DNA of 64,000 bases from Escherichia coli 042 (GCF_000027125.1 NC_017626.1), one strand, 5' to 3'; shown: positions 10,924 to 56,654, counted from the first letter of the stretch. Made by a program: numbers and translations. The notes: generated from the sequence alone by a model not told the origin.

Positions 10924-16987
<6,064 letters not shown>

Positions 16988-17022
16988 TTAATAATAAGTA
17001 ATGTTTGCGCTGTAAATGTAGA

Positions 17023-17039
17023 TTGCAGGGTTCGTGCCA
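17023..17039 (-). promoter_or_regulatory. Sigma-54 promoter (-24/-12) for astCADBE
   Basis: Minus strand reads TGGCACG-AACC-CTGCA, matching the sigma-54 consensus TGGCAC-N5-TTGCW with GG and GC correctly spaced, about 70 bp upstream of the astC start. Confidence 0.6.
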
Positions 17040-17396
17040 GCCAGTGATAAAAGTGCATAAACGGCGGAGGCTAACTGGAAATCAAGGAGTTATAACCAAA
17101 CCATATGCATTTAAAGTGCATATAAAGTGAATACGTTTGCGATGTGGGTGAATAAAAAGAATAAAAAACGCAATGTTATGCAGAAGTAAAATATAATTCT
17201 GGAATTGTGATCATTGACGAAATTTACTGGAAATTACTGCGCCATTCTGACGCAGCGCGCACCAAAAGCGGGCATTTTTTGCGCCATCGTTGACATCATT
17301 AACAACCATCGATCAAATCACTTAACAACAGGCGGTACGCAAAGCGAAATTCTGCTACCATCCACGCACTCTTTATCTGAATAAATGGCAGCGACT

Positions 17397-18203
17397 ATGA
17401 AATTTGTCTCTTTTAATATCAACGGCCTGCGCGCCAGACCTCACCAGCTTGAAGCCATCGTCGAAAAGCACCAGCCGGATGTGATTGGCCTGCAGGAGAC
17501 AAAAGTTCATGACGATATGTTTCCACTCGAAGAGGTGGCGAAGCTCGGCTACAACGTGTTTTATCACGGGCAGAAAGGCCATTATGGCGTGGCGCTGCTG
17601 ACCAAAGAGACGCCGATTGCCGTGCGTCGCGGTTTTCCCGGTGACGACGAAGAGGCGCAGCGGCGGATTATTATGGCGGAAATCCCCTCACCGCTGGGCA
17701 ATGTCACCGTGATCAACGGTTACTTCCCGCAGGGTGAAAGCCGCGACCATCCGATAAAATTCCCGGCAAAGGCGCAGTTTTATCAGAATCTGCAAAACTA
17801 CCTGGAAACCGAACTCAAGCGTGAAAATCCGGTGCTGATTATGGGCGATATGAATATCAGTCCTGGCGACCTGGATATTGGCATTGGCGAAGAGAACCGT
17901 AAGCGCTGGCTGCGTACCGGAAAATGCTCTTTCCTTCCGGAAGAACGCGAATGGATGGAGAGACTGATGAGCTGGGGGTTGGTCGATACCTTCCGCCAGG
18001 CGAATCCGCAAACAGCCGATCGTTTCTCATGGTTTGATTACCGCTCAAAAGGTTTTGACGATAACCGCGGTCTGCGTATCGACCTGCTTCTCGCCAGCCA
18101 ACCGCTGGCAGAATGTTGCGTAGAAACCGGCATCGACTATGAAATCCGCAGCATGGAAAAACCGTCCGATCACGCCCCCGTCTGGGCGACCTTCCGCCGC
18201 TAA
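17397..18203 (+). CDS. xthA: Exodeoxyribonuclease III
   Basis: ORF track 17385..18203 trimmed to ATG at 17397 ([14 protein letters not shown]); 268 aa. Confidence 0.95.
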
Positions 18204-18369
18204 TTTAGCTGTTCTCCTGGCTCAAACTGGGTCAGGAGAATTAACCTTGAGAAAAATCAACAAACTGTCAGTAATGATTTGTTGCCTGCCGCCCTTTGTT
18301 ATACCGTCACTGCGTTTTTAGTTGTCTGACCACTTCTCTATTATCAAGTTTGATATAGGAAACTCCACA

Positions 18370-19080
18370 ATGAACGCTGAGCGTAAATTTCTTTTTGCCT
18401 GTCTTATTTTTGCGCTGGTCATTTACGCTTTCCACGCTTTCGGTTTATTCGAGCTGCTCACCGATTTACCTCACTTACTGACACTCATTCGCCAGAGCGG
18501 ATTGTTCGGTTATAGCCTCTATATTCTGTTATTCATCATTGCCACCCTCTTTCTGTTACCAGGAAGCATACTGGTGATCGCTGGAGGAATAGTTTTTGGC
18601 CCGCTCTTAGGGACACTACTATCATTAATTGCCGCCACGCTGGCCTCCTCGTGCTCATTCCTGCTGGCGCGCTGGCTGGGACGTGATTTACTGCTGAAAT
18701 ACGTTGGCCATAGCCATACCTTTCAGGCCATTGAAAAAGGCATTGCGCGTAACGGTATTGATTTTCTTATTCTGACCCGCTTAATCCCGTTGTTTCCTTA
18801 CAATATTCAAAATTACGCTTACGGATTAACCACAATCACCTTCTGGCCTTATACCCTTATTTCGGCACTCACGACCCTGCCCGGTATTGTTATTTATACC
18901 GTGATGGCAAGCGATCTCGCCAATGAAGGCATTACGCTGCGCTTTATTTTACAACTCTGTCTGGCGGGCCTGGCGCTGTTTATTCTCGTCCAGCTCGCCA
19001 AACTCTACGCCCGACACAAACATGTGGATCTGTCTGCTTCGCGCCGCAGCCCACTTACTCACCCAAAAAATGAAGGATAG
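18370..19080 (+). CDS. ydjX: DedA/TVP38-family inner membrane protein
   Basis: ORF track start 18322 is TTG; trimmed to ATG at 18370 (MNAERKF...); polytopic hydrophobic protein, 236 aa. Confidence 0.85.
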   Translation: MNAERKFLFACLIFALVIYAFHAFGLFELLTDLPHLLTLIRQSGLFGYSLYILLFIIATLFLLPGSILVIAGGIVFGPLLGTLLSLIAATLASSCSFLLARWLGRDLLLKYVGHSHTFQAIEKGIARNGIDFLILTRLIPLFPYNIQNYAYGLTTITFWPYTLISALTTLPGIVIYTVMASDLANEGITLRFILQLCLAGLALFILVQLAKLYARHKHVDLSASRRSPLTHPKNEG

Positions 19081-39694: not shown

Positions 39695-40336
39695 ATGCCC
39701 TCTCGCGCCCTGTTACTGGTCGATTTACAAAATGATTTCTGTGCTGGTGGCGCGCTCGCCGTGCCGGAAGGTGACAGTACGGTGGATGTCGCTAACCGCC
39801 TGATTGACTGGTGCCAGTCGCGCGGTGAAGCGGTTATCGCCAGTCAGGACTGGCACCCGGCGAATCACGGCAGTTTTGCCAGTCAGCACGGTGTAGAGCC
39901 TTATACGCCAGGCCAACTCGACGGTTTGCCACAAACCTTCTGGCCAGATCACTGTGTGCAGAACAGTGAAGGCGCACAATTACATCCGTTACTGAACCAA
40001 AAAGCGATCGCAGCGGTGTTCCATAAAGGCGAAAATCCTTTAGTTGACAGTTACAGTGCCTTTTTTGATAACGGCCGTCGGCAGAAAACCTCTCTCGATG
40101 ACTGGTTACGCGATCATGAAATCGATGAATTGATCGTTATGGGCCTGGCTACTGACTATTGCGTGAAGTTTACCGTGCTGGACGCGTTACAGTTAGGTTA
40201 TAAGGTAAACGTGATTACCGATGGTTGTCGTGGCGTGAATATCCAGCCCCAGGACAGTGCGCACGCGTTTATGGAGATGTCAGCAGCTGGGGCAACGCTA
40301 TATACGCTGGCAGACTGGGAAGAGACGCAGGGGTAG
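39695..40336 (+). CDS. pncA: Nicotinamidase/pyrazinamidase
   Basis: ORF trimmed to ATG at 39695 preceded by AAGGAG; isochorismatase-like fold (LLVDLQNDFC); 213 aa. Confidence 0.9.
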   Translation: MPSRALLLVDLQNDFCAGGALAVPEGDSTVDVANRLIDWCQSRGEAVIASQDWHPANHGSFASQHGVEPYTPGQLDGLPQTFWPDHCVQNSEGAQLHPLLNQKAIAAVFHKGENPLVDSYSAFFDNGRRQKTSLDDWLRDHEIDELIVMGLATDYCVKFTVLDALQLGYKVNVITDGCRGVNIQPQDSAHAFMEMSAAGATLYTLADWEETQG

Positions 40337-40345
40337 TTTTACGCT

Positions 40346-40376
40346 GGCCTACAATTCTGTACTGGCATTGTAGGCC
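40346..40376. repeat. Perfect 10 bp inverted repeat between convergent pncA and ydjE
   Basis: GGCCTACAAT-N11-ATTGTAGGCC; REP-like palindrome or bidirectional terminator hairpin without a strong U tract. Confidence 0.45.
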
Positions 40377-40428
40377 AAATAAAACACGTCAGTGGCACAT
40401 CTGGCAATTGATGCCATCAACGAAAGAT

Positions 40429-41787
40429 TTAATTCACCTCAGAAATATCTTCCAACGACACCTTCCGCGTTTCGATGCCAAAAATGGAGAGAACCAGCGC
40501 ACAGAGCAATAACATGACACCAAGTACCATAAACACCGTGATCGACCCATAATGTGTTAATAATGCCGCAACGCCATAAGGCGTGAAGACCGCGACGATC
40601 CGTCCGACGGCATTAACGAAACCTGAACCTCGCAGGCGTAAATGCGTTGGCCAAAGCTCCGGGATATAAACCGCCGACGCGAAGCAAACATACATGTATA
40701 AAAAGAAGATCATCACCAGGCCATAGATTAAAATCGCCCACTCTGTAGTCTGAATTGAATAGATATAGCCTAACACGGCAATTATAATAAGCAAGGCGGA
40801 GCCAAATAATCGACGAGGAAAATGATCAATAATTAATGCCGCAATAAATATTCCTACCGGAGCGCCAATCATAATAACAGCAGTCATTAATATTGATTTA
40901 TCGACATCAATGCCGGAGTTAACAAATATGGTCGGTATCCATACGGTGATGGTATAAAGTGAAATGTTCATTGCAATTAAAACAGTAATCGCGACTAATG
41001 TACGTCGTAACATTTCCCCTTTAAACAGCAGCCAGAAAGTACCATTGATTACGTTAGCCTTGCTGTTGCTATGATTCAAAGTAAGCGGGGGTAAACGAAC
41101 ACTCTTCTCTCTTTCAATTTGCTGCTCTACTTCACGAAGTTGGCTTTCTGCACCTGCGATTTGCCCTTTCCCTGCCAGCCATCGTGGCGACTCAATAAAG
41201 TATTTACCTGAGAGAAACCAGGCTAACAGTATGCCAATACCGCCCAGCAGAAACATTATCCGCCAACTAAAAAAAGCGATAACCACCACGCCTATCGCCG
41301 CAGACAGCATGGGCGACCAGTTACCAACAAATGAGAGCCGCGCGGACCATTTTCCACGCACCGTCGCGGGGATAAACTCCGTAAATGAGGCATAGCCAAC
41401 CATAAACAGCGCCCCCATTCCTGTTCCCATCAGGAAGCGAAAGAAGATGAGCCAGTACATATCAGGGACAAAAGCGGCCCCTGTTGCCGCAATACCGACG
41501 ATGAGAAGATTTATGCGAAAAGCCCTGCGCCGCCCAAAATAATCACCGATGAACCCACCGGTAAGAGAGCCGATGAAATAACCAAACATTAATGCCGAGG
41601 TAAAGGCGGCATTGAGGAAATTATTTGACCATCCATTGCTTACCAGCTTTGCTAAAACAACATTGCCTGAATAACTCAAAAAACCCGTTAATAACAGACT
41701 AAAGCTTATAATACCAAATATACGATAATGAAACCGGGCCAAAGGCAAGCGGTCCAGTCTTGCGCCAATTTGATCATATTGTTCCAT
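40429..41787 (-). CDS. ydjE: MFS-family sugar transporter
   Basis: 452 aa polytopic membrane ORF with sugar-porter-like motifs (GDYFGRRRAF). Confidence 0.85.
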   Translation of the reverse strand: MEQYDQIGARLDRLPLARFHYRIFGIISFSLLLTGFLSYSGNVVLAKLVSNGWSNNFLNAAFTSALMFGYFIGSLTGGFIGDYFGRRRAFRINLLIVGIAATGAAFVPDMYWLIFFRFLMGTGMGALFMVGYASFTEFIPATVRGKWSARLSFVGNWSPMLSAAIGVVVIAFFSWRIMFLLGGIGILLAWFLSGKYFIESPRWLAGKGQIAGAESQLREVEQQIEREKSVRLPPLTLNHSNSKANVINGTFWLLFKGEMLRRTLVAITVLIAMNISLYTITVWIPTIFVNSGIDVDKSILMTAVIMIGAPVGIFIAALIIDHFPRRLFGSALLIIIAVLGYIYSIQTTEWAILIYGLVMIFFLYMYVCFASAVYIPELWPTHLRLRGSGFVNAVGRIVAVFTPYGVAALLTHYGSITVFMVLGVMLLLCALVLSIFGIETRKVSLEDISEVN

Positions 41788-41904
41788 TAGGTGCCTCGGA
41801 TTTGCTAAAAAGGTAGCAATTGCGGCAAATTCACTTGCCGCATCTTTATCATCATTTTATTTTCCAGGCGCAGGAACAAATAATATTGACAACGTGTGCT
41901 TAAA

Positions 41905-42663
41905 TTACCACACCAGCTGGATATTATTGTCTTTGCAAAATGCTATCCACTCTGCACCCGGTGATTTATCAGTTATTATGTAATTAATATGACTAAAGTC
42001 AGCTAACTGAACAAAAGCTTTGCGATCAAACTTAGAGTGATCAACCAATAACGCAACCTCTGTCGCCTGACGGATCATTGTCTTTTTGATTTCAGCTTCC
42101 GCTTCGTTAGAGTCCAGCGCGCCGCTGTTAATATCTAGACCTTTACAACTCATTACCATGATATCGACATGGTAGCGGCTGATGATCTCTTTAGTAATTC
42201 TTCCTTGCAGGGAAAGTGTATTTTTGTTTAGTTCCCCCCCCGTTGAAACGACTTTAATTTCTGATTGAGCCAGAACATGAATCGCTTCCGCCGAGTTAGT
42301 TAGCAACGTCAGGTCACTACGGTCCTGCAACAATTTGAGCAATTCCATAACGGTACTACTGGAATCGGCTGCCATAGTGGTTTTATTGTCGATAAAGGGT
42401 AGTGCCTTGCGTGCAATAAGCAGCTTCTCTTCATAAAACGATGAAGCGCGCTTATAAAAATGGATATTCTCCGTCAACATCGCTGTATTTAAAACAGCAC
42501 CACCATAGGTTCTGGTCAAAAAGCCTTCATCTTCCAGCTTCTCGAGATCGCGGCGAATGGTTTCTTCGGTTACCTGAAAAATCCCACTCAAATTTGAGAC
42601 TGTCACCTTTTTATCGTTGGCAACCATTTGCTTAATTGCCTGAATCCTGTCTTTTGCCGCCAC
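41905..42663 (-). CDS. ydjF: DeoR-family transcriptional regulator
   Basis: 252 aa ORF with N-terminal HTH (VSNLSGIFQVTEETIRRDLEKLE) and sugar-binding C-terminal region. Confidence 0.85.
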   Translation of the reverse strand: MAAKDRIQAIKQMVANDKKVTVSNLSGIFQVTEETIRRDLEKLEDEGFLTRTYGGAVLNTAMLTENIHFYKRASSFYEEKLLIARKALPFIDNKTTMAADSSSTVMELLKLLQDRSDLTLLTNSAEAIHVLAQSEIKVVSTGGELNKNTLSLQGRITKEIISRYHVDIMVMSCKGLDINSGALDSNEAEAEIKKTMIRQATEVALLVDHSKFDRKAFVQLADFSHINYIITDKSPGAEWIAFCKDNNIQLVW

Positions 42664-42799
42664 GATTACACCCCTGTATCTTTTTACATCACATTAGCGC
42701 GATTATCGCATAATTGATGTTTACTTTCAAAATAACCTGTTTGAATCACAGATTTTCATCACGGTTTTCACAGAAACAGAGGTGAATCGTGTTGAGTAT

Positions 42800-43780
42800 T
42801 TAACGCTCCAGGGCCTCTGCCATTTCCCTCATCAATGTTGCGTCTGCATCCGATAAGTTGATATTCAATGCCGCGACATTTTCGCGTACCTGTTCCGGTG
42901 CAGTAGCCCCACTAAGAATGGAGATTAAATCACTCTGTTTTAATATCCACGCCAGTGCCAGAGTGGGAATTGTGCACTGATAACGAGCACAGAGTGGCTG
43001 CCACTGTTCAAGCATATCAATCACTTTCAGCATGTTTTCACGCTGGAACCAGACTTTATTTGCCCGAGCGCCGCCCGGAACGTAATCACGAGTGATGGTA
43101 CCGGTCAACAATCCCTGCTCTAACGGGGAATAAACCTGTACCACAATGCCATTATCACGACATAGCGGCAGCAGTTCGCTTTCCATTGCCCGGTCGAGGA
43201 TACTGTATTTCGCCTGAATAATATCCAGTTCACCATATTGCAGATACTCGCGGATATGATCAGCATCGACGTTAGCAGCGCCTATAGCGCGAATTTTCCC
43301 TTCGGCCTTTAACTCATTGAGCACTGCGACAGTTTCAGCGATCGGCGTAAAAAATGGCGGCACCGACTGCCAGTGCGTCATGTAGATATCGATGTAATCA
43401 ATACCCAGACGTTGCAAGCTGGCTTCTACCTCTTCGCGGATAGATTCCGGGGAAAGGTTTTTATACAACTGCCGATCGCCAACTTTGTTGAATAAACTCC
43501 CTTTTCGTTCCCAGACAATGCCGCATTTGGTTTCTACTACAACCTGTTCACGGGGCAGTTTTTTTAACGCCTGACCGACGATAACTTCACTATTGCCAAA
43601 GTTATATGCTGGCGCAGTATCAATCAGATTAATGCCACAACGATGGGCTTCAAGAATCGTATAAATACATATTTGCTGATCGAGATCGCCATTCCATGCA
43701 GGACCGCCGCCAATGGCCCATGTCCCCAACCCCATTCGCGAAAGCGTAATATCCGTTGTGCCTAAAGGTATCTTTTTCAT
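42800..43780 (-). CDS. ydjG: Aldo-keto reductase
   Basis: 326 aa ORF; AKR-family fold by sequence character. Confidence 0.85.
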   Translation of the reverse strand: MKKIPLGTTDITLSRMGLGTWAIGGGPAWNGDLDQQICIYTILEAHRCGINLIDTAPAYNFGNSEVIVGQALKKLPREQVVVETKCGIVWERKGSLFNKVGDRQLYKNLSPESIREEVEASLQRLGIDYIDIYMTHWQSVPPFFTPIAETVAVLNELKAEGKIRAIGAANVDADHIREYLQYGELDIIQAKYSILDRAMESELLPLCRDNGIVVQVYSPLEQGLLTGTITRDYVPGGARANKVWFQRENMLKVIDMLEQWQPLCARYQCTIPTLALAWILKQSDLISILSGATAPEQVRENVAALNINLSDADATLMREMAEALER

Positions 43781-43789
43781 TTGCCTTCA

Positions 43790-44737
43790 TTATCCTTCGT
43801 ATTCTTCCAGCAATTGTTCGACCAGCTTTCTGTTTTTTACGCCGGTGGTGGCACCGACGCTTAGAACCGAGATAGCCGCCGTTGCATTGGCAAAGCGTGC
43901 GCATTCACGCAGATTTTTGCCTTCTAACAGAGCCGCTATAAAGCCAGAAGCAAAGTTATCGCCCGCGCCAATAGTGTCGATGGCGGTTATTCCTGCGACC
44001 GCCGGCACCTTCATCGTCATGTCACCACGCTTGATAAAGCAGCCGTCTTTACCCGTTTTAATCACCACCGTTTTTACGCCGCACGCAAGAAAGCAGTCAG
44101 CAATTTCATCCAGTGTCTCTTTCCCGGTGAGTAATTTTGCCTCGGCAAAATTAGGAAACAGATAATCGACAAAACTCAATGCTTCGCAAATATCATCCAG
44201 CGTTTCATTCAACCGTGGTTTGATCATATCGGCACAGATAATCATCTGCCGGGCTTTAGCTTGCGTAAAAATTTCTGTTAGCGCTTTACCATCCAATAGA
44301 GGACTGTTGAAAATACTGGCCAGTGATAATAATTTCGCCTGAGAAAACCGCGCAAAATCAACATCGTCAATATTCAATTTCCACAGACTACCGTTACGGT
44401 TTGTGACAAACGTCCGCTCGCCATCCTCCGTCACCAGTCCAACGTTAATAGAGGTATCTATGCTGACGTCCTGCTTCAGGCTTTGAATATCAATATTCTC
44501 TTTGCGGCAATGGTCGAGAATAAATTGTCCTGCGGCATCTTTACCAACACGACTCATTAATGCTGTGCGATGGCCCAGACGAGAAATAATTGTTGCTTCA
44601 TTTATTGCATCACCCCCGGTGGTCATTGCGATTCTTTCAAGAGGATAAGAATCCACATCAAAGATATTTTTACTGACCGGTTGCAATGGAATATCAACAA
44701 TAGCGGCACCTATGCAAATAACGTCGAGATTATCCAT
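43790..44737 (-). CDS. ydjH: pfkB-family sugar kinase
   Basis: ORF trimmed to ATG at 44737; ribokinase/pfkB signature IDTIGAGDNFASGF present; 315 aa. Confidence 0.85.
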   Translation of the reverse strand: MDNLDVICIGAAIVDIPLQPVSKNIFDVDSYPLERIAMTTGGDAINEATIISRLGHRTALMSRVGKDAAGQFILDHCRKENIDIQSLKQDVSIDTSINVGLVTEDGERTFVTNRNGSLWKLNIDDVDFARFSQAKLLSLASIFNSPLLDGKALTEIFTQAKARQMIICADMIKPRLNETLDDICEALSFVDYLFPNFAEAKLLTGKETLDEIADCFLACGVKTVVIKTGKDGCFIKRGDMTMKVPAVAGITAIDTIGAGDNFASGFIAALLEGKNLRECARFANATAAISVLSVGATTGVKNRKLVEQLLEEYEG

Positions 44738-44741
44738 ATCA

Positions 44742-45578
44742 TTATTCCGCTTTGCCATCAGAACCGAACAGTTTAATTTTTTCCAATGCCCGTTCTTTTA
44801 CAGCTTTACGTACTTCACGTTCTAAATGCAGGAAAGGCTGATCCTGGTTTTCTTTCACTGCTACCATTGCGGCCTGAAAGAGCTCCGTATGAATGTTGAT
44901 TTTCGCGATACCCAACGAAATTGCAGTTTTAATGTCGGTATCACTGATCCCCGATGCGCCGTGCAAAACCAGCGGAACAGAAACGGCATCGCGTACGCGT
45001 TTGACGACCTCAAAGTTCAATTGTGGCTCTGACGTATAAACCCCATGCTGGTTGCCGATGGCGACAGCCAATGAGTCACAGCCCGTACGTTCAACAAATT
45101 CAGCCGCCTGGTCAGGATCGGTATAGTGATAGCCCGCCAGCGCTTCTTCATAAACGGTTTCATTACCGACATGCCCTAATTCTGCCTCTACCGGAATACC
45201 CAGCGGATGGAAGAAATCAACAGCCTCTTTGGTTAAACGAATATTTTCTTCGAAATCAAATGCGGAAGCATCACGCATTAATGAATTCATACCATGAGTC
45301 CAGGCGTTATGAATAATTTCCATACTCCGACCATGATCCCAATGAGTTATTACCGGCACCGTTGCTTTTTTTGCCATTGATACCATCATGTGAGAGAAAT
45401 CTTCAAATGAGGTGTTCCCGACAAAACCTGTACCAAAAGAAATAATAACCGGTGATTTCGCTTCTTCGGCTGCGTCGATAACGCCCATCAACATTTCTGC
45501 ATTCCATACGTTAAAATGGGCAATTGCATAATGTTTATTTGTGGCATCGTTTTCCCAATATCTGATATCTGCGAGCAT
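44742..45578 (-). CDS. ydjI: Class II (metal-dependent) aldolase
   Basis: 278 aa ORF resembling fructose/tagatose-bisphosphate aldolase class II. Confidence 0.85.
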   Translation of the reverse strand: MLADIRYWENDATNKHYAIAHFNVWNAEMLMGVIDAAEEAKSPVIISFGTGFVGNTSFEDFSHMMVSMAKKATVPVITHWDHGRSMEIIHNAWTHGMNSLMRDASAFDFEENIRLTKEAVDFFHPLGIPVEAELGHVGNETVYEEALAGYHYTDPDQAAEFVERTGCDSLAVAIGNQHGVYTSEPQLNFEVVKRVRDAVSVPLVLHGASGISDTDIKTAISLGIAKINIHTELFQAAMVAVKENQDQPFLHLEREVRKAVKERALEKIKLFGSDGKAE

Positions 45579-45598
45579 ATTCTGTTCTCCCGTATTAG

Positions 45599-46642
45599 TT
45601 AATCGCTAATTTTAATAACGCCTTTAATAATGTCGTGTTTGTTGTTAACTGACTCTTCAAATGCCTGTTGTACATCCTGATAATCGTAAATATGTGTCAC
45701 CATCGATTTCACATCGAATCGCCCTGAGGAAATAGCTTCAATCGTGACCGGATAACGATTGGCATAGCGGAATACTGTCTGGATAGTGACTTCGCGATTG
45801 ATTTTGAGGAAATTGATTGCCGAATCGCCCGGTACAGTACCAACAATCATAATTTTACCGCCGCGCATTACCAGATAAGGTGCCTGTTTAACGGTGACCG
45901 CAGAACCCGCTGTTTCGAAAACAATATCTGCGCCCATTTCTTCGGTAAATTGCTGACAGCGTGCAATAGTGTCTTCTTTTGCGCCGTTAATAACCACTGT
46001 CGCGCCGAGCTGTTCCGCCATTGTCAGACGTTTTTCCAGTACATCAACGACGGCAATATCCGTAGCTCCCAGGCATTTGCACGCTTGCAACGTCATCAAA
46101 CCAATACAACCCGCTCCCAGAATAATTATCTTCTTACCCGGTTTAACATCTGCCAGCATCGCGGCATGCATCCCGACTGCGGCAGGCTCCACCAGCGCCC
46201 CTTCCATCGTGTCCATATTGTCGGGCAGTTTGTAAGTAAAGCTCTCCGGATGACACAGATAGTGCGTTAATGCGCCGCGGTAGTTAGGTTGTGTCGCCAT
46301 AAAATCAACGTCCGGGCAGATGTTATATTTGCCTTCCAGACAGTAACGACAGTGACCGCAAGGAACGCCAGGTTCGATATTTACCCGATCCCCCGCTTTA
46401 AATTTGCGCACACGGCTTCCCACAGCCACAACCGTCCCGGCGCATTCATGACCCAGGCCAATTTCTTGATTTGGGTCTTTAGGCGGAATAAACGGGCCTG
46501 ATTCGAAACCATGTACATCTGAACCACAAATACCGACATATTCCACTTTAATCAAAACTTCATCTTCTTTAGGCACAGGTATTTCTGCTGAAATAATTTT
46601 CATTGTGCCCGGCACCTGCAATATTGCTTTTGAATTTTTCAT
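45599..46642 (-). CDS. ydjJ: Zn-dependent medium-chain dehydrogenase/reductase
   Basis: 347 aa ORF with GHECAG zinc-ligand motif and GAGCIG nucleotide-binding motif. Confidence 0.85.
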   Translation of the reverse strand: MKNSKAILQVPGTMKIISAEIPVPKEDEVLIKVEYVGICGSDVHGFESGPFIPPKDPNQEIGLGHECAGTVVAVGSRVRKFKAGDRVNIEPGVPCGHCRYCLEGKYNICPDVDFMATQPNYRGALTHYLCHPESFTYKLPDNMDTMEGALVEPAAVGMHAAMLADVKPGKKIIILGAGCIGLMTLQACKCLGATDIAVVDVLEKRLTMAEQLGATVVINGAKEDTIARCQQFTEEMGADIVFETAGSAVTVKQAPYLVMRGGKIMIVGTVPGDSAINFLKINREVTIQTVFRYANRYPVTIEAISSGRFDVKSMVTHIYDYQDVQQAFEESVNNKHDIIKGVIKISD

Positions 46643-46658
46643 TTTGAATCCACCAGTA

Positions 46659-48038
46659 TTATTTATTGACTACTGCATCAATACTTAAACTTTCAACGGA
46701 GACACCTTTGGTTTCAATTCCAATGGTTGCGATAGCAATTGCGACAATAATTGAAACCGCCCCCAGAAGAATAAAGACTCCCGTTACGCCATAACTACTG
46801 AGCAGCACTGCAACGGCATAAGGTGCGGCAATACCACTGATTCGCCCTACTGCATTCGCCAGACCGGAGCCACGTAATTTGGCCTCTGTCGGCCAGATCT
46901 CAGGGACATACACTGCCGAGGCATAGCAAACGTACATATAGACGAAAGTAATCAGGAAGAAACCAATCAGCGTTATGAGCAACATACTGGTTTGCAGTGA
47001 ATAAATATATCCCAGCACCGCAATCAGGATTAATAGCCCCACACCCATTGTTTTACGCGGAATTTTATCCATCACCAGCATGGCAATAAAAATACCAAAT
47101 GGCGCGCCAAACATACTCATGGTATTTAAAACAATCGAGTCTTTTAAATTAATTCCCTGGGTCATGAATATCGTTGGCAACCAGTTAATTAGTGTGTACT
47201 GCACAACGTTCATGGCAATCAGCACACAAGAACCTAATATCACGCGTTTCAGTAATACTCCTGTCAGTAAGGCTGAATACGGCACCGCTTGTGGCGCTTT
47301 ACCGTCATCAGCAATAACCACGGGCGGCAAAGGTTTACCCGTCTGGCGTATGACGCCTTCTTCTATACTCCGCATGACTTTCTCGGCTTCCTGATACCGT
47401 CCGCGCGATTCCAGCCAGCGCGGGGATTCAGGAAAGTAGCGCCAGGCCAGCGCCGTAGCGATAAGCGACAATATTGCAGGGATAAGCAGTTGTACTCGCC
47501 AGTTCCACTCTGCACTAATCAGCGGCGTGAGTCCCATCGCAATCAATGAACAGAGCGGATATGACCAGTTGCCAATAAAAGAAACCCGACTGGACCACGT
47601 TCCGCGATTTCTACCGGGCATATATTCGGTGAAACCAGCAAACAGCGTCACCAGTAAAGCTCCCAGCCCAACGCCCATCACAAAACGGCAGGCAATAAGG
47701 AAATCCATATTCGGTGAAAAAGCACCGACCACCATCGAGGCAATATGAATGGCCTCATAGAGGATGAACGCATTTCTGCGACCGGTTTTGTCACCGATGA
47801 TGCCGCCAACCAGCGCACCGAGAAACATTCCGGCGGTCGTGATTGCTGAGAATGTGGCAGTGGTGGAATTATCTGTCCAGCCCAACTCTTTCAGCTGCGC
47901 GAGGATCAAGCCACCAACGGCATTACTCCAGCAGACAAGCAAGCCAAACGCGACGATAGCAAACATTGACGAATGCCAGCGGCAATCCGGTAAGCGATCC
48001 AGCCGAGCACCACAATGCGGTTTTGTTATCTGTTCCAT
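46659..48038 (-). CDS. ydjK: MFS-family transporter
   Basis: 459 aa polytopic membrane ORF, paralog-like to ydjE. Confidence 0.85.
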   Translation of the reverse strand: MEQITKPHCGARLDRLPDCRWHSSMFAIVAFGLLVCWSNAVGGLILAQLKELGWTDNSTTATFSAITTAGMFLGALVGGIIGDKTGRRNAFILYEAIHIASMVVGAFSPNMDFLIACRFVMGVGLGALLVTLFAGFTEYMPGRNRGTWSSRVSFIGNWSYPLCSLIAMGLTPLISAEWNWRVQLLIPAILSLIATALAWRYFPESPRWLESRGRYQEAEKVMRSIEEGVIRQTGKPLPPVVIADDGKAPQAVPYSALLTGVLLKRVILGSCVLIAMNVVQYTLINWLPTIFMTQGINLKDSIVLNTMSMFGAPFGIFIAMLVMDKIPRKTMGVGLLILIAVLGYIYSLQTSMLLITLIGFFLITFVYMYVCYASAVYVPEIWPTEAKLRGSGLANAVGRISGIAAPYAVAVLLSSYGVTGVFILLGAVSIIVAIAIATIGIETKGVSVESLSIDAVVNK

Positions 48039-48067
48039 GCGATAACGTTCCTTCAGGAGAGTAGTTA

Positions 48068-49141
48068 TTAATCAAAGTCGTAAGTCATGATCACTTTGAT
48101 TGCGGTTTTATCGACCATCGCATCAAACCCTTCGCGCCATTGCGACAGGCCGATACGATGCGTGATCATCGGTTTGACTTTGATAGCGCCGCTGGCTAAT
48201 AGCCGGAGAGCGTTACGCCATGAGGTGGAGTCATAGGCCATATGCCCAATGATGCTTTTGTTCCAGGCGGTAATGTCATTAATCGAGAAATCAAGAGGTT
48301 TGAAGCCCATTCCAACGCGTACCACTTCCCCGTTCGGGCGGAGCATTTCGATGGCTTGTTTCAATGCGATATTGGCACCGGAGCATTCAATCACCAGTCC
48401 CAGATTGTCTTTGCCACAAATTTGCTGGCAGCGCGCCACCACATCTTCGGTAGAACCATTTACTACTGCCGTCGCACCCAGTTCTTTTGCAACCGGGAAG
48501 CGGACCGCCACATCTTCTTGTAGACCAACGACGACGATATTTACCGCCCCCATAATCCGCGCCATTTGTACGGAGAACAGCCCGAGTGGGCCAGTACCGA
48601 TGACGACTACATCCTGACCAGGGAGGAATTTCGATTGCTGCGCGATGGATTTGTAGGCATTACAGATAGGGTCAAGTACGGCTGCGTCCTCATAATCAAC
48701 ACCATCAGGGATTTCCCACAACGCATGACGATGAATTTTGAGAATTTCACCAGGAACAAGACAATATTTGGAAAAACCACCGCCCCAGGTATTGTTATCC
48801 AGACCAAGGTTTACTTTTTCTGTACAACACAGAAAATCACCTTGTTCACAGGCCGGACAAACGCCGCAGACGTGACCGCTGTTATCTGACACGACGCGTT
48901 GCCCCACTTTCCAGTCTTTGACTTTTTCACCAACCTGCGCAATACAACCTGCGAACTCATGGCCGCGGATAGAGTTAAACTCATCAGAACCGCTATCGAC
49001 ATTGTAGTGCTTCATGTCTGCGCCGCAGATTGCCGCGGCTTTAATTTCAATCACTACATCTTCCGGGCCACAAATGGGTTGTGGCACATCGATCATCTTG
49101 TAGCCGCCAAAGGCTTTGCCAAACCGAGCCAGTGCTTTCAT
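48068..49141 (-). CDS. ydjL: Zn-dependent medium-chain dehydrogenase/reductase
   Basis: 357 aa ORF with GHEFAG zinc-ligand motif and GTGPLG nucleotide-binding motif. Confidence 0.85.
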   Translation of the reverse strand: MKALARFGKAFGGYKMIDVPQPICGPEDVVIEIKAAAICGADMKHYNVDSGSDEFNSIRGHEFAGCIAQVGEKVKDWKVGQRVVSDNSGHVCGVCPACEQGDFLCCTEKVNLGLDNNTWGGGFSKYCLVPGEILKIHRHALWEIPDGVDYEDAAVLDPICNAYKSIAQQSKFLPGQDVVVIGTGPLGLFSVQMARIMGAVNIVVVGLQEDVAVRFPVAKELGATAVVNGSTEDVVARCQQICGKDNLGLVIECSGANIALKQAIEMLRPNGEVVRVGMGFKPLDFSINDITAWNKSIIGHMAYDSTSWRNALRLLASGAIKVKPMITHRIGLSQWREGFDAMVDKTAIKVIMTYDFD

Positions 49142-49510
49142 TGCGTCATCCTCTGTGTTTTGTTTTGCTTAGATGGTCATCATACTTACCCACATGATTT
49201 TTGAGGTCAACATTAAATCTGTAAAACACAGATAATGATCTGCGTTTTACAACTCAGATCACAATTACGCAGAAAATGGCTGGATCTGTTACAGGTTGAT
49301 GGAAGGCGGAACGCAAAATGAGCAAATTTGAGAGGGATTACCGGCCAAATAGGTCTGAGACTTAAGTTCAGGAGAAGTCATTCAGGCGTGAACGCGACTG
49401 CAAGAGACCGGGCTGGTGCTTTGCCTGGTCGTGACGAGATAATTGAGATGAGTCGTGGGGTTATTGTTGGCTATCCCCTTTATAACCGCGGCAAAAAGGG
49501 GACAAACCAC

Positions 49511-49783
49511 TTACTTAAACATGGCAATAGGCTTTGCTGAGATACCAAAATCTTCTTTTAACTGTTGTTTGCTCTTCATGACCATCTGACCATTTGTGTC
49601 AATTGTCATATGCTGTGCTTCGGTATTATTGCGGGCTTGCCACAGCATCACCAGTTGCAGGCAGTTCTCTTTTTGTTCCTCGGTCAACGCAACGCCATCA
49701 GGCCATTTCCCCAATTCAACGGCGGTCGACAAACGCTGGTATACCTCAGGCGTCATGCTGTTGATAATGTCATCAAGATTCAT
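49511..49783 (-). CDS. yeaC: DUF1315-family small protein
   Basis: ORF track 49511..49828 trimmed to ATG at 49783 (MNLDDIINSMTPEVYQRL); 90 aa. Confidence 0.8.
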   Translation of the reverse strand: MNLDDIINSMTPEVYQRLSTAVELGKWPDGVALTEEQKENCLQLVMLWQARNNTEAQHMTIDTNGQMVMKSKQQLKEDFGISAKPIAMFK

Positions 49784-54719: not shown

Positions 54720-56654
54720 ATGAATATATTCGATCACTATCGCCAGCGATATGAAGCTGCCAAGGACGAAGAGTTCACACTGCAGGAGTTTCTTACCACT
54801 TGTCGGCAAGATCGCAGTGCTTATGCCAACGCGGCTGAGCGGCTATTGATGGCTATCGGTGAGCCTGTCATGGTCGATACAGCCCAGGAACCCAGACTTT
54901 CTCGACTCTTTTCTAACCGGGTCATTGCACGTTATCCGGCGTTTGAAGAGTTTTACGGCATGGAAGACGCGATTGAACAGATTGTCTCTTATCTGAAACA
55001 CGCGGCTCAGGGGCTGGAAGAGAAGAAACAAATCCTGTATCTGCTGGGGCCTGTGGGTGGGGGTAAATCATCGCTTGCTGAGCGACTGAAATCATTAATG
55101 CAGCTCGTACCGATTTATGTATTGAGCGCCAACGGTGAGCGTAGCCCGGTCAACGATCATCCGTTCTGTCTTTTCAATCCGCAGGAAGATGCGCAGATTC
55201 TGGAAAAAGAGTATGGCATTCCTCGCCGTTATCTCGGCACCATCATGTCGCCGTGGGCGGCAAAACGCCTGCATGAATTTGGTGGCGATATCACTAAGTT
55301 CCGGGTAGTGAAGGTCTGGCCGTCAATTCTGCAACAAATTGCTATCGCCAAAACGGAACCCGGTGATGAGAACAACCAGGACATCTCCGCGCTGGTTGGG
55401 AAAGTCGATATTCGTAAACTCGAACACTACGCGCAGAATGACCCGGACGCCTACGGCTATTCCGGTGCACTGTGCCGCGCCAACCAGGGGATCATGGAAT
55501 TCGTTGAGATGTTTAAAGCACCGATTAAAGTGCTGCATCCCTTGCTAACCGCCACTCAGGAAGGTAACTACAACGGGACGGAAGGTATCTCCGCCCTGCC
55601 GTTCAACGGGATTATTCTCGCTCACTCGAACGAATCCGAATGGGTCACTTTCCGTAATAACAAAAACAACGAAGCCTTCCTTGATCGTGTTTACATCGTG
55701 AAGGTGCCGTATTGCTTGCGCATTTCCGAAGAGATCAAAATCTACGAGAAATTGCTTAATCACAGTGAATTGACTCACGCCCCCTGCGCCCCTGGCACGC
55801 TGGAAACGCTGTCACGTTTTTCCATTCTTTCGCGCCTTAAAGAGCCAGAAAACTCCAGCATTTATTCAAAGATGCGGGTTTATGATGGCGAAAGTCTGAA
55901 AGACACAGATCCCAAAGCCAAGTCGTATCAGGAATATCGTGACTACGCCGGTGTCGATGAAGGGATGAACGGTCTGTCGACGCGTTTTGCGTTTAAGATC
56001 CTCTCCCGCGTGTTCAACTTCGATCATGTAGAAGTGGCGGCAAACCCGGTTCATCTGTTCTACGTTCTGGAACAACAGATAGAACGCGAGCAGTTCCCGC
56101 AAGAACAGGCGGAACGCTATCTGGAGTTCCTGAAAGGTTACTTGATCCCGAAATATGCCGAGTTTATCGGTAAAGAGATTCAGACTGCGTATCTTGAATC
56201 CTATTCAGAATATGGACAGAACATTTTCGACCGTTATGTTACCTACGCGGATTTCTGGATTCAGGATCAGGAGTATCGCGATCCGGATACCGGGCAGCTG
56301 TTTGATCGCGAGTCTCTTAACGCCGAGCTGGAGAAAATCGAGAAACCGGCGGGGATCAGTAATCCAAAAGATTTCCGCAACGAGATTGTTAACTTCGTAC
56401 TGCGCGCCAGAGCGAATAACAGCGGACGCAATCCGAACTGGACCAGCTATGAAAAACTGCGCACGGTTATTGAGAAGAAAATGTTCTCCAATACCGAGGA
56501 GCTGTTGCCGGTTATTTCGTTTAACGCCAAAACGTCAACCGACGAGCAAAAGAAACACGACGATTTTGTCGACCGTATGATGGAAAAAGGCTACACCCGT
56601 AAACAGGTGCGTTTACTGTGCGAATGGTATTTGCGCGTACGTAAATCGTCTTAA
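54720..56654 (+). CDS. yeaG: PrkA-family serine protein kinase
   Basis: 644 aa ORF with Walker A motif LLGPVGGGKSSLAERL. Confidence 0.9.
   Translation: MNIFDHYRQRYEAAKDEEFTLQEFLTTCRQDRSAYANAAERLLMAIGEPVMVDTAQEPRLSRLFSNRVIARYPAFEEFYGMEDAIEQIVSYLKHAAQGLEEKKQILYLLGPVGGGKSSLAERLKSLMQLVPIYVLSANGERSPVNDHPFCLFNPQEDAQILEKEYGIPRRYLGTIMSPWAAKRLHEFGGDITKFRVVKVWPSILQQIAIAKTEPGDENNQDISALVGKVDIRKLEHYAQNDPDAYGYSGALCRANQGIMEFVEMFKAPIKVLHPLLTATQEGNYNGTEGISALPFNGIILAHSNESEWVTFRNNKNNEAFLDRVYIVKVPYCLRISEEIKIYEKLLNHSELTHAPCAPGTLETLSRFSILSRLKEPENSSIYSKMRVYDGESLKDTDPKAKSYQEYRDYAGVDEGMNGLSTRFAFKILSRVFNFDHVEVAANPVHLFYVLEQQIEREQFPQEQAERYLEFLKGYLIPKYAEFIGKEIQTAYLESYSEYGQNIFDRYVTYADFWIQDQEYRDPDTGQLFDRESLNAELEKIEKPAGISNPKDFRNEIVNFVLRARANNSGRNPNWTSYEKLRTVIEKKMFSNTEELLPVISFNAKTSTDEQKKHDDFVDRMMEKGYTRKQVRLLCEWYLRVRKSS

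Follow-up and report, generated by a model that had tools for sequence, protein, structure and literature searches.

The intact ydjE–ydjL cluster of Escherichia coli 042, a probable catabolic module for a polyhydroxylated, carboxylate-ended compound

Introduction

On which compound does the ydj gene cluster of Escherichia coli act? Among the orphan clusters of E. coli K-12 it is one of the better studied, with solved structures for three enzymes (YdjI, YdjH and YdjJ) and in vitro activities for three. In the passages of PMC9602453 that summarise Huddleston & Raushel 2019, the operon's enzymes are described as having functions "only partially determined", YdjH and YdjI are said to prefer long, carboxylate-ended chains, and the best in vitro substrate is stated to have "no natural abundance". 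Passages of PMC9602453 and PMC11194214 that draw on Huddleston et al. 2019 describe a DHAP-dependent retro-aldol activity of YdjI, and the latter gives octuluronate-1-phosphate as the product of DHAP and L-arabinuronate. A first-pass annotation of the locus in E. coli 042 had named no complete in vivo pathway; consistent with this, our full-text literature search, which covered mainly openly accessible papers, found no physiological substrate or complete pathway, whose establishment would have contradicted that annotation, and no YdjF effector, nor did it bring up any effect on growth or fitness with a defined compound. The best octuluronate-type substrate is reportedly used with modest catalytic efficiency only; the true substrate may thus have another chain length, deoxygenation or charge. 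We kept apart from this literature the unrelated genes that share the names, namely the Bacillus subtilis pspA-ydjGHI operon, B. subtilis ydjL (bdhA), Paenibacillus ydjJ and yeast YDJ1. Here, the cluster was analysed in a stretch of 64,000 nucleotides of the E. coli 042 genome (NC_017626.1), referred to as the window.

Results

An intact and ordinary allele of the ydj cluster

ORF calling on the window returned eight minus-strand ORFs spanning 40429-49141, exactly where the first-pass annotation had placed an eight-gene ydjE–ydjL cluster:

40429..41787, minus strand: ydjE, MFS transporter, 452 aa (Pfam MFS_1/Sugar_tr)
41905..42663, minus strand: ydjF, DeoR/GlpR-family regulator, 252 aa, GTG start (HTH_DeoR and DeoRC)
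42800..43780, minus strand: ydjG, NADH-dependent aldo-keto reductase, 326 aa (Pfam Aldo_ket_red)
43790..44737, minus strand: ydjH, PfkB-family kinase, 315 aa (Pfam PfkB)
44742..45578, minus strand: ydjI, class II (Zn) DHAP-dependent aldolase, 278 aa (Pfam F_bP_aldolase)
45599..46642, minus strand: ydjJ, Zn-dependent medium-chain dehydrogenase, 347 aa, sorbitol-dehydrogenase/ketose-reductase-like (ADH_N and ADH_zinc_N)
46659..48038, minus strand: ydjK, MFS transporter, 459 aa (Pfam MFS_1/Sugar_tr)
48068..49141, minus strand: ydjL, Zn-dependent medium-chain dehydrogenase, 357 aa, L-threonine-3-dehydrogenase-like (ADH_N and ADH_zinc_N)

The families named earlier all matched Pfam far above the gathering cut-offs, and the gene identities were confirmed by protein-level orthology and synteny with K-12 MG1655. 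All eight genes correspond to K-12 b1769-b1776 (97.6-99.6% protein identity, zero internal stops), which lie there as ydjLKJIHG-ydjF-ydjE (b1776-b1769) in the same order, on the same strand and between the same neighbours (pncA / ydjE...ydjL / yeaC msrB gapA). Nucleotide divergence from MG1655 is about 2-3%; residues 237-248 of YdjE carry a run of substitutions, and YdjL lacks its final residue (357 aa instead of 358), since TAA stands at the last codon. Purifying selection acts on all eight genes (dN/dS 0.03-0.16 against K-12), and the nearest complete genome is that of strain MEW, from an ivory gull (99.7%). The longest ORF of ydjH extends to 44758, while the start used in K-12 and the PDB gives 315 aa. 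The locus is the well-known E. coli ydjE–ydjL cluster, intact and in an ordinary allele. Its description as compact with short gaps holds for the six-gene ydjL-K-J-I-H-G operon, where the intergenic gaps are 29, 16, 20, 4 and 9 nt, but not for ydjF and ydjE, which are preceded by gaps of 136 and 117 nt and have upstream regions of their own.

Enzymes of a kinase–aldolase pathway

YdjH scored 246 bits against the PfkB profile (cut-off 25.8), carries the C-terminal PfkB signature with the catalytic Asp (DTxGAGD; DTIGAGDNFASGFI, residue 254) and is near-identical to PDB 3H49/3IN1; the N-terminal PfkB signature, tried in our own version of the pattern, gave no match. YdjI scored 299 bits against PF01116 (cut-off 25.5) and 322 bits against TIGR00167 (cut-off 215.6), contains the H-x-D-H zinc/catalytic motif (HWDH, residues 79-82) and is near-identical to the crystal structure of the "YdjI aldolase" (PDB 6OFU, 3e-185); two strict PROSITE patterns, in our own copies, did not match. 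In K-12 RefSeq the two proteins are named "L-glycero-L-galacto-octuluronate kinase" and "L-glycero-L-galacto-octuluronate-1-phosphate aldolase", and these names, like PMC9602453, agree with the partial characterisation on higher-carbon keto sugar acids that the first reading had mentioned.

Both dehydrogenases carry the GHE catalytic-zinc signature, a four-Cys structural zinc site and the GxGxxG fold motif. YdjJ matched PDB 5VM2 at 5e-231, followed by ketose reductase 1E3J and sorbitol dehydrogenase 1PL6. YdjL has no solved structure; its top PDB match was the L-threonine 3-dehydrogenase Tdh (2DQ4, 1e-42). Among the matches of YdjJ and YdjL to the NCBIfam equivalogs for L-threonine 3-dehydrogenase, sorbitol dehydrogenase and L-idonate 5-dehydrogenase, the best was that of YdjL to the Tdh model (217 bits, cut-off 380), and all lay below their cut-offs. 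YdjG passed the NCBIfam equivalog MethglyxlRedYdjG for NADH-dependent methylglyoxal reductase (621.8 bits, cut-off 550).

In the inositol pathway of B. subtilis, the PfkB kinase IolC and the class II aldolase IolJ act on 2-deoxy-5-keto-D-gluconate: the keto sugar acid is phosphorylated at the primary hydroxyl beside the ketone and split into DHAP and an aldehyde-acid. The steps proposed below for YdjH and YdjI would follow the same logic, and the similarity extends to individual proteins, as the top NCBIfam model of YdjH is IolC, YdjJ and YdjL match IolM, and IolS is among the best structural matches of YdjG. However, membership of the myo-inositol catabolic set IolC / IolJ / IolM was tested at the equivalog cut-offs and these were not reached (IolC 141.8 bits against 300; IolM 195 and 179 bits against 450), so the ydj proteins are not Iol orthologs. 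The cluster also differs from the inositol pathway in having no inositol dehydrogenase, dehydratase or hydrolase genes.

Carriers and the nature of the substrate

YdjE and its paralog YdjK (44% identity) passed general models only (Pfam MFS_1 and Sugar_tr). The top NCBIfam model of YdjE was the aromatic-acid/H+ symporter subfamily (1e-46, below cut-off) versus 3e-21 for the sugar porter subfamily. In bits, YdjE and YdjK reached 157 and 148 against a cut-off of 418.55 for TIGR00895 (aromatic-acid/H+ symporter), and YdjE reached 75.6 against 237.8 for TIGR00879 (sugar porter), for which YdjK had no match at 1e-20 or better. An anionic substrate is supported by this best-scoring subfamily and by the carriers that accompany the cassette in other species, namely Na+:dicarboxylate symporter family (SDF) carriers and Liv-type ABC systems.

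A conserved cassette in gut-associated bacteria

The L-(K)-J-I-H-G-F cassette was found in 148 mostly gut-associated species of several phyla, with YdjI identities of 73-98%. Among 80 species spanning several phyla, 75 keep the order J-I-(H,G); G and H are swapped in twelve species. Cassettes of gut Firmicutes, Fusobacteriota, Actinomycetota and Synergistota (hosts include Sebaldella termitidis, Schaedlerella arabinosiphila and Veillonella) keep the L-(K)-J-I-H-G-F order, with 70-87% identity to E. coli for YdjL and 73-87% for YdjI, but differ in carrying an SDF carrier for ydjE or an ABC system for ydjK, often with an inserted AlsE-like epimerase. The habitats of the hosts are gut, insect gut, rumen and plant rot. 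With its block presence or absence in E. coli (see below) and its conserved gene order across phyla, the cassette behaves as one functional unit.

Transporter genes differ from species to species and belong to the MFS, SDF or Liv-type ABC families. An SDF carrier takes the position of ydjE in 15 species, and 10 of the species without ydjK have a Liv-type system, a family associated with branched-chain amino acids; a class I/II aminotransferase gene accompanies the cassette in 3 species. Together with the Tdh-like structural and NCBIfam best matches of YdjL, these genes could point to a nitrogen-bearing substrate, such as a hydroxy-amino acid, an amino-polyol acid or a glycated amino acid, in which YdjL would act like threonine dehydrogenase on the carbon adjoining the amine. 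We consider this highly improbable: every Tdh match is far below its family cut-off, most occurrences of the aminotransferase and of the ABC system are in a divergent sub-family without ydjK, whose YdjH and YdjF are just 40-52% identical to those of E. coli, the E. coli cluster has no deaminase, deglycase or transaminase gene, and YdjH and YdjI accept plain sugar acids.

The AlsE-like epimerase gene lies between ydjL and ydjK in 29 species, and its product reached 252.5 bits with the model for D-allulose-6-phosphate 3-epimerase, whose cut-off is 271. It points to hexose-6-phosphate chemistry and, like the additional Pfam placement of YdjE and YdjK in the sugar-porter family, speaks against an acid. 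Both observations would fit a neutral substrate, a rare hexitol or ketohexose such as one of the allitol/psicose or tagatose type, which a dehydrogenase would convert to a ketose that is phosphorylated by YdjH and split by YdjI into DHAP and glyceraldehyde, the latter being reduced by YdjG. The nearest relatives of YdjJ (ketose reductase, sorbitol dehydrogenase and L-arabinitol/xylitol dehydrogenases) suit such a route, and in gene content the cluster is like the gat and aga tagatose pathways. The galactitol and N-acetylgalactosamine pathways of E. coli likewise yield DHAP and, like ydj, unite in one locus a class II aldolase (GatY/KbaY, also matched by the YdjI profile), a zinc dehydrogenase (GatD, matched by the YdjJ profile) and a DeoR repressor (GatR/AgaR; the YdjF profile also matches AgaR). 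Those pathways, however, use PTS import and cleave a ketose 1,6-bisphosphate, whereas ydj relies on MFS carriers and on a PfkB kinase that acts on the free ketose, and has an aldo-keto reductase and one more dehydrogenase. A neutral sugar is unlikely, given that YdjH and YdjI favoured long carboxylate-ended chains in vitro in the published passages cited above, that YdjE and YdjK are closer to organic-acid symporters than to sugar porters, that the replacement carriers elsewhere belong to dicarboxylate and amino-acid families, and that the E. coli cluster has no epimerase gene.

Presence and absence of the cluster in E. coli

Two features delimit the cluster within the species:

40395..49512, no strand: presence/absence unit of 9.1 kb, comprising the eight genes and both regulatory regions
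40345..40377, no strand: hairpin TGGCCTACAAT...ATTGTAGGCCA between the convergent pncA and ydjE, found as an inverted repeat

The 9.1-kb unit is present or absent as a block; about 21% of the complete genomes of E. coli lack it, and about 90 bp of unrelated DNA then occupies the site (comparison with the empty-site strain M3). The hairpin, which is likely a bidirectional terminator, is kept in ydj-negative E. coli and marks the left edge of the unit. Since other Enterobacteriaceae (Citrobacter, the Klebsiella oxytoca group, Raoultella and Yokenella) carry the unit at the same yeaC/pncA site, its absence from some E. coli looks like secondary loss. A recently inserted island was considered and rejected: the GC content of the cluster is only modestly lower (0.462 against 0.499 in the surroundings), and the location shared with other genera speaks for long residence followed by loss. 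The unit is not flanked by direct repeats.

Promoters and a candidate YdjF operator

The regions upstream of ydjF and ydjL contain the following elements:

42702..42780, minus strand: candidate ydjF promoter with conserved upstream box (promoter scan, 10/12 with TG extension)
42730-42725 and 42710-42702, minus strand: candidate -35 (TTGAAA) and extended -10 (TGcGATAAT) of ydjF, predicted by consensus
42753-42737, minus strand: ydjF upstream box ATCTGTGATTCAAACAG, conserved across Enterobacterales and Agarivorans
49182..49268, minus strand: conserved regulatory block upstream of ydjL (phylogenetic footprint), including TGTGATCTGAG
49251-49220, minus strand: palindrome TGTAAAACgCAGAT/ATCTGtGTTTTACA upstream of ydjL (inverted-repeat search)
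49233-49217, minus strand: box ATCTGTGTTTTACAGAT upstream of ydjL, shared with the ydjF promoter
49210-49205 and 49187-49182, minus strand: candidate -35 (TTGACC) and -10 (AAGTAT) of ydjL, predicted by consensus

The footprint upstream of ydjL is kept in 12 Enterobacterales and Agarivorans, and DNA farther upstream is unalignable. At both promoters, conserved repeats lie directly next to the -35 element. The shared box has five matches in the window against 0.22 expected, three of them at the ydjL and ydjF promoters, a statistic that is partly circular because the motif was derived from the same sites at which it is then counted; the box was found again at both promoters in other genera. We regard the box adjoining the two -35 elements as a candidate YdjF operator on grounds of its position and conservation. 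YdjF, which is 98.8% identical to its K-12 counterpart, has HTH_DeoR (62.5 bits) and DeoRC sensor (165.5 bits) domains above cut-off. Judging from conservation and the behaviour of its family, it would probably repress the ydjLKJIHG promoter and its own through the shared box, and may be released by a phosphorylated intermediate. No YdjF ChIP-exo or regulon data were found in the literature search.

Two other readings of these regions were discarded. A 15-pair hairpin at 49252-49219 was rejected as a terminator; it lies upstream of the candidate -35, has four G-C pairs only and falls inside the footprint, which fits an operator palindrome better. A CRP site at TGTGATCTGAGTTGT was rejected because its second half-site reads TTGTG/TTGTA and not TCACA.

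Expression and phenotypes reported for K-12 and other strains

A K-12 ydjL promoter fragment is switched on as the bacteria pass through the mouse gut, and a 3.5-fold higher level of YdjG is reported for the caecum (PMC6561318). Other reports could suggest that ydj mainly serves stress tolerance or detoxification in E. coli (reduction of aldehydes and methylglyoxal, acid or osmotic tolerance, efflux) and not carbon catabolism. In addition to its equivalog match, YdjG has been found to reduce methylglyoxal, and overexpression of YdjK aids growth in high salt (PMC6561318); ydj genes are over-represented in lactic-acid-resistant E. coli from meat plants (PMC9602453), deletion of ydjK lowers starvation-induced antibiotic tolerance (PMC8597633), and overexpression and knockout of YdjE alter the export of 3-phenyllactate and acetophenone (PMC10971958). 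These associations are, however, indirect, confounded by phylogroup or drawn from overexpression screens, and E. coli has several methylglyoxal reductases besides YdjG. The combination of a kinase with a DHAP aldolase and a DeoR regulator, in an order fixed across phyla, is typical of a catabolic operon, and a main role in stress is very unlikely.

Discussion

The reading that we favour is that ydj is an inducible catabolic module for a polyhydroxylated, carboxylate-ended compound, probably a C7-C9 sugar acid or a polyol precursor of one, in the animal gut; we hold this to be probable. It agrees with the earlier proposal of a pathway for an uncommon sugar or sugar acid, which is supported by the protein families and by the in vitro data on YdjH and YdjI. 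The substrate would be taken up by the paralogous MFS carriers YdjK and YdjE, after which YdjL and YdjJ may adjust its oxidation state in NAD(P)-dependent steps to give a 2-ketose with a distal carboxylate. YdjH would then phosphorylate the C1 hydroxyl, as it does in vitro in the hands of others on synthetic octuluronates, and YdjI would split the ketose-1-phosphate into DHAP and an aldehyde-acid, a cleavage also studied in vitro by others. Finally, the NADH-dependent YdjG, with its activity on methylglyoxal, could reduce the aldehyde to a hydroxy-acid.

A more specific version, which we rate as a long shot, is that ydj is a horizontally shared pathway of gut bacteria for an abundant but overlooked acidic C7/C8 sugar. 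Candidates would be Kdo-, Ko- or Dha-type octulosonic or heptulosaric acids derived from lipopolysaccharide or from pectin rhamnogalacturonan II. YdjL and YdjJ, one reducing and the other oxidising, would shift the carbonyl away from the carboxylate end to the opposite end of the chain, YdjH and YdjI would then remove DHAP, and YdjG would reduce the leftover aldehyde-acid to a 2-keto-3-deoxy-pentonate-like product. The in vitro preference for C7-C9 carboxylates, the acid-type carriers and the habitats of the cassette hosts are compatible with such a sugar.

The window itself adds nothing new on the substrate question. The comparative leads, namely carriers of acid type that vary between species, an AlsE-like epimerase, a candidate operator for YdjF and the natural ydj-negative strains, are modest aids to the design of experiments. 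Naming the substrate of ydj would fill a gap in the metabolic map of E. coli and, because the cassette occurs in 148 species and its promoter is on in the mouse gut, the compound could prove to be a nutrient for which many gut bacteria compete.

Gene content and comparison with K-12

Eight consecutive open reading frames (ORFs) occupy the minus strand of window 40429-49141, in agreement with the eight-gene cluster of the first-pass annotation, and Pfam returned exactly the families named there: two MFS carriers, a DeoR regulator, an aldo-keto reductase, a PfkB kinase, a class II aldolase and two zinc-dependent dehydrogenases, all scoring far above the gathering cut-offs. The proteins share 97.6-99.6% identity with those of Escherichia coli K-12 MG1655 and contain no internal stops, and the flanks are as in K-12, with pncA on one side and yeaC-msrB-gapA on the other. 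The earlier description of a compact cluster with short gaps holds within ydjL-K-J-I-H-G (spacers of 4-29 nt) but not for ydjF and ydjE, upstream of which lie gaps of 136 and 117 nt, respectively. The ydjH start was set at 44737 following K-12 and the PDB (a longer ORF would begin at 44758), and YdjE and YdjK are paralogs with 44% identity. YdjL has 357 residues here, as ydjL ends in TAA TAA (48065-48070), the first TAA replacing the GAA codon (Glu358) of K-12.

Of 5426 complete E. coli genomes, 5425 match the stretch at least partly, and ydjE to ydjL are the features annotated in the matched region. Window 40000-49600 is 97.9% identical to K-12, so it is not the K-12 allele, and only 644 genomes match it at ≥99%; the closest is strain MEW from ivory gull liver (99.7%), which is annotated with a 358-residue YdjL. 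Overall, the first-pass annotation is accurate in its description and its caveats: the cluster is genuine, intact and unremarkable, an allele of an orphan cluster that is already known and characterised in part.

Published knowledge and proposed pathway

In K-12 RefSeq, ydjH is named ‘L-glycero-L-galacto-octuluronate kinase’, ydjI ‘L-glycero-L-galacto-octuluronate-1-phosphate aldolase’ and ydjG ‘NADH-dependent methylglyoxal reductase’, while the remaining five products are ‘putative’. These names, together with the passage of PMC9602453 that summarises Huddleston & Raushel 2019 and Huddleston et al. 2019, bear out the earlier statement that the kinase and aldolase were partly characterised on higher-carbon keto sugar acids. 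According to that passage, the functions of the operon enzymes have been determined only in part, YdjH and YdjI favour long-chain monosaccharides that end in a carboxylate, and the best substrate has no natural abundance. The YdjI reaction, as restated in a passage of PMC11194214, joins DHAP and L-arabinuronate to octuluronate-1-phosphate. Crystal structures exist for YdjI (6OFU), YdjH (3H49/3IN1) and YdjJ (5VM2), and the PDB search yielded none for YdjL or YdjG. Within the library covered, full-text search uncovered neither a physiological substrate nor a complete pathway nor an effector of YdjF, as the first reading had anticipated for an in vivo pathway, and no report in which substrate and pathway are both fully established.

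In the most probable mechanism, judged from family membership and context, YdjK and YdjE would import the substrate, and YdjL and YdjJ would redox-tailor it into a 2-ketose carrying a distal carboxylate. YdjH would then phosphorylate C1 and YdjI would cleave the product to DHAP and an aldehyde-acid, both steps having been demonstrated in vitro by others. YdjG, which has aldehyde-reductase activity, may reduce the aldehyde of the aldehyde-acid. YdjF, judged again by family and context, would repress the genes until relieved by a phosphorylated intermediate. IolC and IolJ of inositol catabolism follow the same logic as the YdjH and YdjI steps; this is a likeness in mechanism and not family membership, because the Iol equivalog scores of the ydj proteins all fall far below the cut-off.

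Indirect reports associate the ydj genes with lactic-acid resistance (PMC9602453), YdjK with starvation tolerance (PMC8597633) and YdjE with export of 3-phenyllactate and acetophenone (PMC10971958). A stress or detoxification role for the cluster, as opposed to the catabolic pathway proposed here, appears very unlikely.

The cassette beyond E. coli

YdjI relatives at 73-98% identity were found in 148 species-representative genomes, among Enterobacterales, Agarivorans, Gilliamella, many Lachnospiraceae and other Clostridia, Veillonella, Megamonas, Anaerococcus, Erysipelotrichaceae, Atopobiaceae and Synergistaceae; Sebaldella termitidis appears in the list of YdjI homologues as well. Most of these species inhabit host guts (mouse, human, chicken, rumen, rabbit, bee, beetle, termite). 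Of the 80 loci retrieved, 75 keep the J-I-(H,G) order, most often in the arrangement L-(K)-J-I-H-G-F (letters denote ydj genes). Between Sebaldella and E. coli, identity reaches 85% (L), 79% (K), 78% (J), 82% (I), 69% (H), 72% (G) and 66% (F). Since these values far exceed the usual between-phylum level, they point to horizontal spread of the cassette. Among the 80 species, this order is clearly broken only in bee-gut Gilliamella (loci L081 and L082), where one strand carries K-L-I-F and the opposite strand G-H-J.

Across the loci retrieved in the 80 species, the transport genes vary. ydjE follows ydjF in only 22 loci, every one from Enterobacterales or Agarivorans, and a Na+:dicarboxylate-symporter-family carrier takes its position in 15 species. 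ydjK is missing in 22 species, with a Liv-type ABC system in 10 and a CUT1-type ABC system in 3. For YdjE and YdjK themselves, the aromatic-acid/H+ symporter subfamily outscores the sugar porters, both cut-offs being missed. Together with the variable carriers, these scores speak for an anionic substrate, consistent with the in vitro data. A neutral rare sugar or polyol is unlikely; the neutral-hexose reading is kept alive by an epimerase inserted in 29 species, which at 252.5 bits lies just below the D-allulose-6-phosphate 3-epimerase cut-off of 271.

Additional genes in a few species encode a rhamnulokinase-like kinase, a FucA-like aldolase and a TIM-barrel isomerase-like protein, or else an aminotransferase. 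A nitrogen-containing substrate, in place of the sugar acid favoured here, is very unlikely. In three cassettes lacking ydjK (L054, L061 and L064, ~16000-18800), the Liv-type ABC genes precede those for a rhamnulokinase-like FGGY kinase, a FucA-like class II aldolase and a xylose-isomerase-like TIM-barrel protein. This set could serve to cleave the aldehyde product in a second step.

Predicted promoters and a candidate YdjF operator

Upstream of ydjL, a block of ~85 bp (49268-49182) shows conservation in twelve Enterobacterales and, in part, in Agarivorans; DNA further upstream is unalignable. The block carries nested inverted repeats on GATCTG/CAGATC and TGTAAAAC/GTTTTACA, followed 3' by a conserved TTGACC and, 17 nt on, AAGTAT. 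The ydjF upstream region is equally conserved and has a strong predicted sigma-70-type promoter (TTGAAA, 17-nt spacer, TGcGATAAT). At both predicted promoters, the box ATCTGTGnTTnAnAn(A/G)T adjoins the putative -35 hexamer in the same register, and other genera have exact matches at the two promoters too. With ≤1 mismatch, the pattern ATCTGTGNTTNANANNT, which was derived from the same promoter sites at which it is counted, has five matches in the window against 0.22 expected, three of them at the ydjL and ydjF promoters. The other two, each with one mismatch, lie at 46515-46531 (within ydjJ) and 55509-55525 and may be chance. We propose the box as a candidate YdjF operator, which would entail autoregulation.

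The ydjL promoter, said to drive ydjLKJIHG, was off in culture and on during mouse gut transit, and the caecum was reported to show a higher level of YdjG protein (PMC6561318). A ydjL 5'-region fusion rose >2-fold in a Rho mutant (bioRxiv 10.1101/2020.07.18.207399).

Presence, probable loss and selection in E. coli

Of 5426 complete E. coli genomes, 4306 (79%) carry the ydjH-ydjI DNA, in agreement with the about 80% reportedly given in the Huddleston papers of 2019. In the ydj-negative ~21%, pncA adjoins yeaC. Strain M3 (L003 1637-1797) has a pncA-yeaC spacer of 160 bp that keeps the pncA-side hairpin, with ~90 bp of unrelated sequence standing in for window 40395-49512; no direct repeats flank the unit in the comparison of the window with L003. 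Gain or loss therefore affects the eight genes and both regulatory regions together, as a single 9.1-kb unit. Because Escherichia whittamii, Citrobacter, the Klebsiella oxytoca group, Raoultella, Yokenella and Intestinirhabdus have the cluster at this yeaC/pncA site too, its absence in E. coli is best read, on this comparative evidence, as secondary loss.

A small second inverted repeat, TGGCAATTGATGCCA (40401-40416), lies just 3' of the ydjE stop, inside the presence/absence unit, and is a candidate ydjE terminator. In Citrobacter (C. braakii, L014 3446-5164) and Klebsiella loci, the yeaC-ydjL interval contains ~2 kb of extra DNA; this encodes, on the strand opposite to ydjL, a 426-residue secreted protein bearing the DxDWEYP motif of glycoside hydrolase 18 (chitinase-type) and a 137-residue HNH-like protein, both lacking in E. 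coli.

Cluster GC is slightly below that of the rest of the window (0.462 vs 0.499), as is GC3 in the ydj genes relative to flanking genes (0.41-0.51 vs 0.52-0.56). Some strains carry IS elements in the cluster: an IS3-family element splits ydjE in O157:H7 BB24-1 (L090 2743-3956), and IS5 and IS1 copies lie within the transporter genes of HeN100. Where present, the cluster shows purifying selection on each of its eight genes (dN/dS vs K-12 of 0.03-0.16).
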